Assembly (NCBI GenBank): GCA_964479375.1
Contig: CAYZKD010000001.1
Span: 7,540 to 71,539 of the forward strand
DNA: 64,000 nt
From: an uncultured Candidatus Saccharibacteria bacterium
GTDB taxonomy: Bacteria > Patescibacteriota > Minisyncoccia > Minisyncoccales > GWA2-38-27
Direction: 5' to 3'
Positions 39,629 through 43,798 of the stretch are shown here, in pieces. Numbering within the stretch: the stretch's first letter is position 1; each line of letters starts with the position of its first letter. The notes under the pieces are model-generated. The model did not search any database, was not told the DNA's origin, and saw only the letters and a program-made list of their open reading frames with translations. Made by a program: the position numbers and the translations under genes.

Positions 39629-42600
39629 ATGGTAAATAAAAAAAATAAAAAGAAGATTGCTCCTAAGGAGCAAGAATACACAGCAAAAGATATTTATGTT
39701 TTAGAGGGCCTGGATCCGGTGCGGAGAAGGCCTGGTATGTATATCGGCTCCACGGGAAGCGAGGGACTTCATCACTTGATTTGGGAATGTGTAGATAATA
39801 GTTTGACCCATCAAACACCTGTAATATTTAAACAAAGAGATAAAATAAAGATCTCTCCGATCGGGGAGTTGGTTGACAATTTGTTTAAAGAGAACCCCGG
39901 GTTGGTTAAAAGATCAGAAAAAAGCGAGATCGAATTTTTAAGAAAAGACCTGGGGATTAAATCCTTGAGTTTTGATCCTAAAACGTTAAAACTGAAATTT
40001 CAGCCGATTTTCTCTTTAATTCGCCATAGGGTTAACAGCGAAATCTTCAAGGTTACTCTCCAGAATAATCGTCAGGTTGAAATTACTCCTTATCACTCTC
40101 TGTTTACCCTAAACAATGGTCAGGTTACACCGATTAGAGGTGCGGACTTAAAAATTGGAACGCCGGTGGTTGTCCCGAAGACTTGGCCGGAGGTAAACAA
40201 TTCAGCAAAGGGAATTGATTTGATTGATGAATTACTAAAACTGCCTCCCGAAAAGACGGAGAAGATAAATATATACAACCTAAACATATTTTTAGGAAGC
40301 AACTCAGATATTGCCTCAAAAATCAAATCTCAACTTCCCCAGTACGACAAATCGCGGCATCGGGCCAATATCTGGCAAGATTATTTGAGGTACAATTATT
40401 TGCCTTTTAATTTAACAAGGAATCTAAGCGCAGAGGAACTTGCAAAAGTTAAAAAAGAAAATCCTTACTTGGGCAATAAGAGGAGTGACAACTGGAGGAT
40501 GCCCTTTAAATTAATAATCAACAGAGAGTTGGTCGAACTCTTAGGAGTCTTTGCGGCCGAAGGCTCGATTGTTAAAAATTCTGGTTTTCCCAGCAGAGTA
40601 GTATTCGGCTTTGGGAGCCACGAGAAGGAACTAATTAATTATACCTGTTCTATAATAGAGAAAGTCTTTGGATTTGGGACAAGACCGAACTATGCACATG
40701 ATACCGCCAGAACGGTTGCCATCAACTCTTATTTAATAGCTTTAATATTTAAAGAAATTATCAAGACAGGAGAGAATAGTTCTAATAAAACAATTCCCAA
40801 TCTGATATTTAACCTAAGCAGAGACTTAAGGAAAAGATACCTAATCGGCTATTTGGCCGGTGACGGTTATCCAACCAAAACCTGGATTGGTCATCTGACC
40901 CAGAATAGATCTCCCGCTGAGTCAGAGAGAAGAAAATTTGCTGCTGTTGCTAAAAGCAAACATTTTATTATTACGCTCTCCTATCTTCTCTCTTCTTTGA
41001 ACAAAACATATTCTTATGGAGAAAGAAAAAAAAAGGGCAAAAGATTTATAGAAGTAACCTACAAGGGCAGGAAGAGAAAATCAGAGATAAGGTCTAAAAA
41101 GATTTCCTACGCCCTTGATTTTTACTGGAATACCAATTCATCCTATTTCAACCGCCTTCCCTTTAATGAAGTAATCGCCGAATGTTCCGGCGAAACAGCC
41201 CTGAGCCGCATTTATAATCGGCAGGAAAGTGGTATTTCTAGGAGTAAGATCGTATCTCTATTAGGAGAACAGAAAATTTCCTTAAGACCCGGGGCTTTTG
41301 CTTTTTTGAATTCAGATTTGGGTGTATTGAGAGTAAAGGAAATAAAAAAAATAGAATACAAAAAACCTTGGGTATATGATATTTCAGTTCCTCGGGGGGA
41401 GAACTTTGTAGGAGGCCTCTCTCCGATATGTGTTCACAATTCGTTAGACGAAGCAATCGCAGGTTATGCTAAAAACATTGAAGTTTCTCTGTTTCCGGAC
41501 GGGAAGGTTAAGACTACAGATGACGGAAGGGGAATCCCGGTAGAGCGCCACAAAAGCACCAAGAAGTCAGCTTTGGAGACAGTAATGACCACCCTTCACG
41601 CAGGAGGAAAGTTCGGAGGTCAGGCGTATAAAGTTTCCGGCGGCCTTCACGGAGTAGGAGTTTCTGTAGTATGCGCTTTATCCAAATACCTTAAAGCAGA
41701 AATCTGTAGAGAGGGCATTCGTTATGCTCAAGAATACGCCAAAGGGAAACCTAGGGGAAGAGTTAAGAAAGATGGCAAGTGTCGCCAGAGAGGAACCTCG
41801 GTTACATTTCAGCCAGACCCTGAGATTTTTAAAGAAACTGAGTTTAATAGGAAAACTATTTTAAGACATCTCCGCCAACAGGCCTATTTGACAAAAGGAG
41901 TGAGAATAACCGTTAAAGACGAGAGAGAAAAGGACGAGTTTGAATACAGTTTCTATTTTGAAGGAGGACTTTCTTCTTATGTGGACTATCTAATCGGCGG
42001 ATCCAATCCTCGCCACGCTAATACTTTTTATTGCTCCAGCCAGAGAGAAGATGTTTTAGTGGAAGCGGCCCTTCGCTACACAGAGGAGTACGAAACCCTA
42101 GAGGAAAGTTTTGCTAATAACATCTATACAGGGGAAGGAGGGACTCATTTAACAGGATTCAGGACTGCTCTCACTCGCTCTCTTAACGATTATGCCAGAA
42201 AGAACGACTTCCTCAAGGACTCTGACAACAATTTTACAGGAGAAGACATTAGAGAGGGGCTGACAGCCGTTGTTTCTGTAAAAATAAAGGAGCCTCAATT
42301 CGAGGGTCAGACAAAAGCCAAACTAGGCAACGTAGAAGCCAAAACAATGGTTGACCAAGTGGTTTCCGAAGCCCTAACCGATTTCTTAGAAAGGAATCCC
42401 CAAGATGCAAAGGCTATTATCGAAAAATGTATTTTATCCTCAAGAGCTAGGAAGGCTGCCCGCACCGCTAAAGAAACTGTTCTGAGAAAGGGAGCCCTTG
42501 AAGGACTGGCTCTTCCCGGGAAACTGGCAGACTGTATATCAAAAGACCCTGCCAAATCAGAACTTTTCATTGTTGAGGGAGATTCGGCCGGAGGGTGTTT

Positions 42601-43798
42601 TTCTGGAGACACCAAGGTAGCTCTTTTGGATGGAAGAAATATTTCTTTTAGAAGGTTAGTTGAAGAATACAAAAAAGGGAAAAATAATTACTGCTATACT
42701 ATAAAAAAAGACGGCACCATTGGCGCCGGATTAATAGAGAGTCCTCGAAAAACAAAGATAAATACGGAAGCAATAAAGATTGTTTTAGATAGCAACGAAG
42801 AGATTGTTTGCACGCCTGATCATAGGTTTATGTTGAGGGGTGGGGGATATAAGATGGCAAAGGAATTAACCTCAAAAGACTCTCTGATGCCTCTTTATAG
42901 AAAATATTCCCAGAAAGGGGGTGCGATAACAATTGATGGCTATGAAATGGTGTTTGACCCCAAGAGAGAAAAATGGGTTTTTACTCATCTTTTGTCTGAT
43001 GATTATAATTTTTGCAGTAGATTTTTCAATAAAAACGAGAGCAAGTTAAGGAAGGATGTTTCAACCTATAACCATCGGATTAAAAGGATAGTGAAACTAA
43101 AAGAGAGAATCAACGTTTATGATCTAGAAGTTGAAGATACTCATAATTTCGCTTTATCATCAGGAATTTTCGTTCATAATAGTTGCAAGACAGCAAGAGA
43201 CAGACACTTTCAGGCAGTGTTGCCCCTAAGGGGTAAGATTTTGAATGTAGAAAAGGCTCGCTTAGACAGGATTCTTTCCTCTAAAGAAATTAAATCATTG
43301 ATCATTGCTTTGGGCACTGCTATAGGAGATGACTTTAATATTGAGAAAGCCAGATATCATAAAGTTATTCTCACTCTAGACGCGGATGTAGATGGTGCCC
43401 ACATTTGCTCTCTGCTGCTTACTTTTTTCTACAGGTATCTCAGACCTATTATTGAAAAGGGCTATTTGTATGTAGCCCAGCCTCCTCTTTATAAAATACA
43501 GGCTGGTAAAAGAATAGAGTATGCGCATAAAGAAAAGGATAAAGACAGGATTTTAAAGGAGATTGATGGGGGAAACAATAAGGTTTCTATTCAAAGATAC
43601 AAGGGCTTGGGAGAGATGAATCCAGATCAATTATGGGAAACCACCATGGATCCTGAGAATAGGGTTCTTTACCAGGTAGCTGTTGAGGACACAGAGCAGG
43701 CTGATAAGATTTTTGATGTTTTAATGGGCGATGAAGTTGACCCCAGAAAGAAGTTTATACAGGCCTATGCTAAAGAAGCTCAGAATCTTGATATCTAA
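39629..43798 (+). CDS. gyrB: DNA gyrase subunit B precursor containing two inteins (mature extein about 647 aa)
   Basis: Extein segments are collinear with GyrB: [25 protein letters not shown] | SLDEAIAGY...GGKFGG...LHGVGVSVV (ATPase), then ...[12 protein letters not shown] | [26 protein letters not shown] (Toprim), and a C-terminal [21 protein letters not shown]. Confidence 0.95.
39800..41440 (+). mobile_element. gyrB intein 1 (547 aa) with a LAGLIDADG homing endonuclease domain
   Basis: Begins with Ser right after ECVDN, ends in VHN, and the +1 residue is Ser. Internal LAGLIDADG-like blocks ([11 protein letters not shown] and [11 protein letters not shown]). Removing it restores the conserved [12 protein letters not shown]. 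Confidence 0.85.
42596..43180 (+). mobile_element. gyrB intein 2 (195-aa mini-intein)
   Basis: Begins [13 protein letters not shown] (intein block A), ends IFVHN, and the +1 residue is Ser. Removing it restores EGDSAGG-S...[14 protein letters not shown]. No endonuclease domain. Confidence 0.85.

Follow-up and report, generated by a model that had tools for sequence, protein, structure and literature searches.

The 64,000-nucleotide stretch of contig CAYZKD010000001.1 analyzed here (referred to as the window throughout), which comes from an uncultured Candidatus Saccharibacteria bacterium, carries four inteins in three single-copy essential genes: two in gyrB (gyrB-a and gyrB-b), one in thyX, and one in dnaE (Table 1). 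The genome was assembled from a metagenome, and by the source names of protein homologues the organism falls among the Patescibacteria/Parcubacteria. All four are very probably selfish elements that splice by the class 1 pathway, with splicing, its chemistry, and endonuclease activity deduced from the sequences and from characterized relatives. Comparisons with allelic copies, solved structures, and a close relative established the anatomy of the elements, their exact boundaries, their family membership and fold, and their presence/absence polymorphism. Three large "hypothetical" open reading frames (ORFs) can now be read as the precursors of GyrB, ThyX, and DnaE, whose mature forms and splice junctions are exactly predictable; the three proteins are already present in NCBI, where they are unnamed. 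The original prediction, which was made from the letters of the window, had named the same four inteins, and their places and lengths proved exact to the residue.

Table 1. Precursor genes and inteins of the window. Positions are those of the window; a slash marks each splice junction.
Feature	Position	Strand	Length (aa)	Precursor residues	Host protein without intein	Junctions	Source
gyrB precursor ORF	39629-43798	+	1389		647 aa after removal of two inteins		ORF list
gyrB-a intein	39800-41440	+	547	58-604		ECVDN/SLTHQ...ICVHN/SLDEAIAG	
gyrB-b mini-intein	42596-43180	+	195	990-1184		EGDSAGG/CFSGDT...GIFVHN/SCKTARDR	
thyX precursor ORF	47180-48880	+	566		228-aa ThyX		
thyX intein	47420-48433	+	338	81-418		NVSRGF/CYDDKT...AFWSGN/THEMVRHR	
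dnaE precursor ORF	56963-61438	-	1491		1056-aa Pol III alpha		
dnaE intein	57902-59206	-	435	745-1179		RYGFNK/CVTGDT...DIFVHN/SHSTAY	

Profile searches identified the host proteins even with the inteins in place. The GyrB precursor matched TIGR01059 at 896 bits (cut-off 882) and contains the Pfam domains HATPase_c, DNA_gyraseB, Toprim, and DNA_gyraseB_C, and the 647-residue spliced form matched TIGR01059 from end to end. The ThyX precursor scored 113 bits against TIGR02170 (cut-off 88), with Pfam Thy1 found in two stretches. The DnaE precursor reached 1407 bits against NF005298 (cut-off 1260) and contains the Pfam domains PHP, DNA_pol3_alpha, finger, HHH_6, and OB. All three genes are located in conserved operon contexts.

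Each of the four inserts lies within a conserved motif of its host, and excision at the junctions restores a contiguous host sequence, as expected of an intein and as had been claimed. The gyrB-a intein interrupts the ATPase motif E-x-V-D-N/S-x-D-E directly behind its Asn, begins with Ser1, and ends His-Asn before Ser, whereas gyrB-b interrupts the Toprim motif EGDSAGG/S, begins with Cys1, and likewise ends His-Asn before Ser. The thyX intein (site SRGF/THE) runs from Cys1 to Ser-Gly-Asn before Thr, and the dnaE intein (site YGFNK/SHS) from Cys1 to His-Asn before Ser, with YGFNK-SHSTAYAMIAYQTAYLK as the predicted spliced junction peptide. The splicing nucleophiles are therefore complete in all four (S...N/S in gyrB-a, C...N/S in gyrB-b and dnaE, C...N/T in thyX), and the predicted Cys or Ser at position 1, terminal Asn, Ser or Thr at +1, and Gly-Asn ending of the thyX intein are all borne out. 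These junction residues are conserved among allelic copies, of which we collected 94 for gyrB-a, 42 for gyrB-b, 109 for thyX, and 54 for dnaE. Block B of the splicing domain is present in every intein (TPYH in gyrB-a, TPDH in gyrB-b, TPNH in thyX, TKNH in dnaE), and blocks F and G can be aligned across all of them; block F of gyrB-a reads VYDISV, and the thyX intein has a Cys in block F where the others have Asp and a Gly in block G where they have His.

Three of the inteins, gyrB-a, thyX, and dnaE, contain a nested LAGLIDADG endonuclease, and gyrB-b lacks such a domain; the motifs and the Pfam, PDB, and profile matches agree in upholding this division into three LAGLIDADG inteins and one mini-intein. 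The paired motifs are FMGVFITDGS and FMNGVIVGDGN in thyX and ILGYLLAEGN and AAKMFQGDGC in dnaE; gyrB-a also has two, and each motif in the three inteins keeps its acidic residue. Pfam LAGLIDADG_3 matched the dnaE intein at E 2.9e-15 and the thyX intein at E 7e-9, the latter together with faint matches to intein-bearing models, and gyrB-a at E 1.3e-3, which is below the cut-off. The guanine-plus-cytosine (G+C) content is 0.35-0.38 in three of the inteins and 0.43 in their exteins, which is consistent with a foreign origin. Searches of the six-frame translation with the four inteins (phmmer) and with seven class hidden Markov models (hmmsearch) found no further intein in the window, which makes four the full number for this stretch.

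The splicing domains could be related to characterized inteins. For gyrB-a, we found matches to intein-containing archaeal models (E 1e-27) and, among PDB sequences, to the TFIIB intein 5o9i (E 2e-26) and PI-PkoII 2cw7 (E 8e-23), which are its nearest solved relatives; all of these are large and LAGLIDADG-bearing, but gyrB-a differs in having Ser1, a bacterial GyrB host, and a length of 547 residues. Pfam Intein_splicing matched gyrB-b at E 7.8e-40 and the dnaE intein at E 7.7e-26, and TIGR01445 and TIGR01443 matched both. The PDB sequence relative of gyrB-b is the NrdJ-1 intein, and the closest to the splicing domain of the dnaE intein is the Ssp DnaB mini-intein 1mi8 (E 2.5e-31). The cyanobacterial split-DnaE models NF007079 and NF005616 align across the same Pol III alpha region. 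Unlike the Ssp DnaB mini-intein and split DnaE, the dnaE intein of the window is contiguous and LAGLIDADG-bearing. Its insertion point presumably lies about four residues downstream of the split-DnaE site (Y/CFNK compared with GFNK/SHS), if we take the native split-DnaE C-extein to begin with CFN.

The thyX intein resembles the VMA inteins 7qsu and 7qss in its endonuclease domain (E 2e-8). Its fold was assessed from an AlphaFold model of the whole ThyX precursor, built on an alignment of 49 homologues, which had a mean predicted local distance difference test score (pLDDT) of 89.2. The best PDB matches of this model in Foldseek were the TliVMA, PhoVMA, PI-PfuI, PI-SceI, and PI-PkoII inteins, with E-values of 1e-18 to 1e-8; Mycobacterium tuberculosis ThyX and I-DmoI came next. 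As modeled, the thyX insert thus has an intein fold.

The strongest evidence comes from empty sites in a close relative (assembly GCA_964468405.1), whose contig is syntenic with the window. The locus compared (L001, positions 1-16,179 of a 21,274-bp contig) takes in dnaE and thyX and ends before gyrB. The DnaE of the relative (P0248) is intein-free, has 1056 residues, and is identical to the predicted spliced DnaE at 1016 of them; its ThyX, also intein-free, shares 215 of its 228 residues with the spliced ThyX predicted here. In nucleotide sequence, too, the exteins show no gaps against the relative, with identities of 92.7% for dnaE and 91.1% for thyX. Since these intein-less orthologues are gap-free and have exactly the predicted length, the boundaries of the dnaE and thyX inteins are exact, and the claimed restoration of the extein is confirmed for both genes. 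The pattern is not due to chance. The presence of both inteins varies among closely related genomes, the behavior one would expect of mobile elements.

The thyX site shows a further local difference from the relative. Across the first 60 nucleotides of the thyX C-extein (window 48434-48493), identity is 78%, compared with 91% over the gene as a whole, and the changes are mostly synonymous (for example, ACGCACGAGCTAGTAAGGCATCGC versus ACCCACGAGATGGTTCGCCATAGG). This stretch could be a co-conversion tract left by homing or could reflect changes in the endonuclease target, on a small sample with weak statistics. No similar drop in identity to the relative was seen at the dnaE site.

The sites occupied in the window are widely used in related proteins. 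Among the 119 best GyrB relatives, which are mostly Patescibacteria by their source names, site a is occupied alone in 62, site b alone in 20, and the pair found in the window in another 20; 12 combine site a with a third site and three have all three, so that 35 have two or three sites occupied. The precursors reach 2235 residues. The site-a inteins of 94 relatives measure 508-582 residues, cluster around 547, and all begin with Ser1. The third site, which is empty in the gyrB of the window, lies inside the D-x-D motif of Toprim (DAD/[ST]DG, extein position about 511). Its carriers include P0128, P0129, P0132, P0138, P0148, P0150, P0153, and P0175, and its inteins have Ser1 and about 525 residues, are homologous to gyrB-a (E 2.5e-54 for the window ORF), and in a few copies end Lys-Asn or Ala-Asn rather than His-Asn.

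The site-b class has 42 members, which come as full versions of about 434 residues or as mini-inteins; the latter are natural, number nine, and span 153-266 residues. Against the 434-column profile of this class, only positions 1-139 and 378-434 are matched by gyrB-b (E 3.7e-72 for the N-terminal and 1e-25 for the C-terminal part), which indicates that the endonuclease part has been deleted. The closest known counterpart is the Ssp GyrB intein of Synechocystis sp. PCC6803, from which mini and S11 split derivatives have been engineered and which shares the EGDSAGG/S site, Cys1, and the type of C-terminal hexapeptide; we take the CFSGDT... N-terminus of gyrB-b to match Ssp GyrB as well. The published Ssp GyrB C-intein reads GVFVHN followed by Ser (PMC2794532), an ending identical to the GVFVHN/S of most Patescibacteria alleles, where gyrB-b has GIFVHN/S. 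By its site, the 42-allele profile, and this published ending, gyrB-b is assignable to the Ssp GyrB family as an endonuclease-deleted allele. It is endonuclease-free like the engineered 156-residue Ssp GyrB mini-intein, but is a natural deletion derivative of 195 residues. Engineered mini-inteins of this family splice efficiently (PMC3620165), and the natural series at the GyrB Toprim site offers a minor resource for protein engineering.

For DnaE, 54 of 120 relatives carry an intein at GFN(K/R)/SH, with lengths of 182-475 residues and Cys1 and a His-Asn ending in all of them; the sites FQLE/S and YGI/C are occupied in other relatives, and up to three sites are used. Dozens to hundreds of database proteins carry an intein at each of the four sites of the window, and by their sequences the four inteins are assignable to already known families. 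The claim of a very high intein density holds against typical cultured bacteria and does not hold within the clade: the density is real but, judging from the relatives, appears characteristic of Patescibacteria and unexceptional among them, and a heavy intein load in replication genes would be routine there. Among the titles and abstracts of the searchable literature, we found no paper on inteins of the Candidate Phyla Radiation (CPR) or Patescibacteria.

The thyX intein belongs to a much broader set. More than 100 ThyX precursors have an intein at the SR../[TS]HE.VRHR site, and in the 109 copies extracted there, Cys1 and the Gly-Asn ending are invariant and the block F Cys (V-Y-C) nearly so. 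A scan of GTDB species genomes, in which the best identities were 32-35% and no close Patescibacteria relative came up, placed such inteins in Solirubrobacteraceae, Nocardiopsis, Streptosporangiaceae, Fervidibacter, Terrisporobacter, Heimdallarchaeota, and Methanomassiliicoccales. Searched alone against 1.84 billion representative proteins (a library at 50% identity), the thyX intein matched 9437 representatives at E<=1e-3; 117 of the top 150 were complete copies, set in many host proteins; each of these began with Cys1, and 112 ended in Gly-Asn. Decay of the window copy was considered as a source of the Gly-Asn ending and rejected, since the ending is invariant in the 109 allelic copies and is shared by 112 of the 117 copies from other host proteins. 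Across 225 copies, the subfamily signature consists of Cys1 (100%), Thr B:7, His B:10, Arg B:11 (67%), Met B:12 (78%), Cys F:4 (96%), Pro four residues further on (87%), Gly G:6 (99%), and Asn G:7. The subfamily is abundant in bacteria, in archaea, and among phages, and its copies come from many phyla. Three ThyX relatives of 912-930 residues (P0004, P0005, and P0007) are about 350 residues longer than the protein of the window and seem to contain a further intein, placed upstream of the SR/THE site; in P0005, a thyX-like intein occupies residues 444-788.

Two phage inteins share the signature of the thyX intein, namely Cys1, T-x-N-H-R-(M/V), V-(Y/W)-C-x-x-V-P-N, and a terminal Gly-Asn. One is the annotated ThyX intein of Corynebacterium phage P1201 (about 28% identity), which is inserted at HH/SVLEH, upstream of the SRGF/THE site of the window. 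The other is found in a different host protein, the phosphoesterase RDF of mycobacteriophage Bethlehem (CSWT...TANHRV...VWCLRVPNG...HLTGN/S), and matches the subfamily profile with an hhalign probability of 98.4% (E 9e-15; about 23% identity over aligned columns). In E. coli, the Bethlehem RDF intein, which is treated as class 1, splices completely; its G316H variant splices more slowly and accumulates precursor (Kelley et al., PMC5050341). The prediction had marked the penultimate Gly of the thyX intein and the gyrB mini-intein as being of biochemical interest; both features are real, but they are traits of already studied families and their interest was overstated.

When the splicing-domain profile of the subfamily was compared with all PDB sequences, it had one significant match, AceL NrdHF (6zgq, E 1.2e-7; next match 0.15), which was also the best mini-intein fold match to the ThyX model. 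A PDB sequence search with the 42-residue C-terminal piece of the thyX intein gave no match. Hoffmann et al. showed that AceL NrdHF belongs to class 3 and that its triplet is an atypical "MCT" (PMC7891396). This intein has Ala1, a Ser65-x-x-His68-Arg69-Met70 block B, and Cys124 (F:4) as its first nucleophile, followed by Pro128-Gly129; a block F His and a penultimate His are absent, the C-terminus reads Thr144-Gly145-Asn146/Ser, a G145H variant is inactive, and Arg69 (B:11) contacts the C-scissile carbonyl (PMC7891396). On the published residue numbers, on which the comparison of blocks F and G is based, the thyX intein is similar in its T-P-N-H-R-M, C-V-T-V-P-N-G, and S-G-N/T motifs, and the assisting His residues are absent from both. 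It differs from AceL NrdHF-1-1, which has Ala1, is split, and has no LAGLIDADG domain, in being contiguous and having Cys1. Judged by sequence, the subfamily appears to be very large and unnamed and to combine an invariant Cys1 with the "MCT" signature of AceL NrdHF.

In the standard class 1 pathway, each of the four inteins would be translated in frame with its host protein and would afterward remove itself. The first step would be an acyl shift at position 1 (N-S with Cys1, N-O with Ser1), helped by the Thr-x-x-His of block B; transesterification to the Ser or Thr at +1 and cyclization of the terminal Asn would follow, and a final O-N shift would produce an ordinary peptide bond. Splicing would thereby restore the ATPase N-box and the Toprim motif of GyrB, the SR...RHR substrate motif of ThyX, and GFNKSHS in DnaE. 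In the thyX intein, where an invariant Gly replaces the penultimate His, Arg B:11 probably compensates by assisting Asn cyclization, as suggested by analogy with its relatives. The three LAGLIDADG enzymes, apparently intact, would cleave alleles that lack the intein and so bring a copy of it into them; such homing explains why the dnaE and thyX inteins are missing in the close relative, and we infer that the three domains are, or recently were, active. The gyrB-b intein has lost its endonuclease and would persist as a mini-intein without mobility. Splicing of all four is inferred because the essential genes are intact and relatives of the inteins splice in experiments (PMC5050341, PMC3620165).

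Several observations weigh against this account. The thyX intein has neither the block F Asp nor the block F His nor the penultimate His, which means that its chemistry is not fully canonical, and the Pfam and TIGR splicing models gave no match to it. The suggestion that domain searches would recover the inteins thus succeeded for gyrB-b and dnaE (Pfam and TIGR) and for gyrB-a (intein-containing models) and failed for thyX with the splicing models, though its fold matches inteins. Furthermore, the dnaE intein has the same G+C content as its extein, and the empty-site comparison covers dnaE and thyX, not the gyrB inteins.

The absence of these three commonly conserved assisting residues from the thyX intein, its invisibility to the splicing models, and the lost endonuclease of gyrB-b could be read as signs that one or more inserts, most plausibly these two, are decayed, non-splicing remnants, in which case the host would be a pseudogene or a second copy would be needed. 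We regard such decay as highly improbable, because the ORFs are uninterrupted, the nucleophiles, block B His, and terminal Asn are all present, the odd residues of thyX are family traits in more than 200 copies from many phyla, and the three genes keep their conserved operon contexts; moreover, the Bethlehem RDF intein splices fully, and engineered mini-inteins of the gyrB-b family do so efficiently (PMC3620165). Bacterial intein-like (BIL) domains, which have no +1 nucleophile, reside in variable non-essential hosts, and mainly mediate cleavage (PMC4031507), were rejected for all four inserts, which have Ser or Thr at +1, restore their exteins on removal, and interrupt essential enzymes within their catalytic motifs. 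An adaptive role, in place of a neutral load of selfish elements, would make the cluster a set of conditional switches acting after translation, through which replication is coupled to redox state or other conditions. Such a role would fit the placement of all four inteins in catalytic motifs of DNA-metabolism enzymes, the two conserved cysteines near the active center of the thyX intein, and the conditional splicing that two reports document for other replication-protein inteins (PMC6195587, PMC8557812). It is nevertheless improbable: the 96%-identical relative does without the dnaE and thyX inteins, site occupancy is patchy and combinatorial among relatives, the endonuclease motifs kept in three inteins suggest mobility, and insertion into conserved motifs is the usual bias of homing targets.

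A narrower alternative concerns the chemistry of the thyX subfamily, whose block F Cys (F:4) might act as a covalent nucleophile or relay and form a branched thioester of the class 3 kind, either together with Cys1 or as a substitute for it. We consider this unlikely, although the sole significant PDB relative of the splicing domain is a proven class 3 intein with a near-identical signature, the F:4 Cys is as frequent as noted above, and Ser or Thr predominates at +1, a feature shared with class 3. Against it stands Cys1, whose invariance in 225 of 225 copies argues for a working nucleophile and which published definitions of class 3 exclude at position 1. In addition, the WCT triplet is incomplete (the subfamily has Met at B:12 and Ser or Cys at G:5), Cys is the second most common F:4 residue among inteins generally (PMC4031507), a few members have Asp, Ser, or Gly there, and the Bethlehem RDF member is treated as class 1. 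Outright membership of the thyX intein in class 3 was rejected: its VYC Cys does occupy the alignment column in which the other three inteins have their block F Asp and so provides the Cys at F:4, but Cys1 is present, and Met and Ser replace the W (B:12) and T (G:5). Met at B:12 is a variant also found in AceL NrdHF. A related and similarly doubtful scenario is that the Cys1 thioester in this subfamily is relayed via the block F Cys, or made redundant by it, and that inteins of the AceL NrdHF type are descendants that lost Cys1. Class 3 has been argued to be of convergent origin on the ground that an attempt to convert a class 1 intein into class 3 by engineering was unsuccessful (PMC7664689). 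The link between the subfamily and AceL NrdHF is relevant to this argument: because AceL NrdHF, a proven class 3 intein of atypical kind, has its nearest sequence relatives in the thyX subfamily, a small number of point mutants could test whether and how class 3 splicing arose from class 1. The class 1 pathway remains our preferred reading of the thyX intein.

The surroundings of the inteins are ordinary. Ten neighboring ORFs were identified by Pfam as common genes, including pheS, pheT, nusG, a dCMP deaminase gene, a dUTPase-like gene, and tmk. A 540-residue ORF without a Pfam match (52725-54347, minus strand) lies between thrS and a miaB-like gene and is kept at equal length and position in the locus of the relative, where it likewise has no Pfam match. 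The dUTPase-like gene (45608-46480, plus strand, 290 residues) is located between the dCMP deaminase gene and tmk; Pfam dUTPase covers residues 17-155 of its product, and the C-terminal half has no Pfam assignment. In the relative, which is 96% identical, the dCMP deaminase gene and tmk are about 115 bp apart, with a gene-free gap (L001 15463-15578), and the dUTPase-like gene thus represents a gain or loss within the nucleotide-metabolism cluster.

A putative fifth self-splicing element of the window, at the RNA level, is a group I intron of about 242 nucleotides (about 33513-33754) that splits an initiator-type tRNA-Met(CAU) gene (33478-33797, plus strand). Rfam RF00028 matched positions 33503-33746 with 77.9 bits (E 4e-18), and ARAGORN, which misses the gene in the intact locus, calls a tRNA-Met(cat) once 33513-33754 is removed. 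The tRNA starts with 5' CGCGGGG, finishes with 3' CCCCGCAACA, and shows a C1xA72 mismatch; we take it to resemble E. coli tRNA-fMet closely. CPR genomes are known for a tendency to carry self-splicing elements, to which this intron adds. At its boundaries, the 5' exon ends with U and the intron, which is ORF-free, ends with G.

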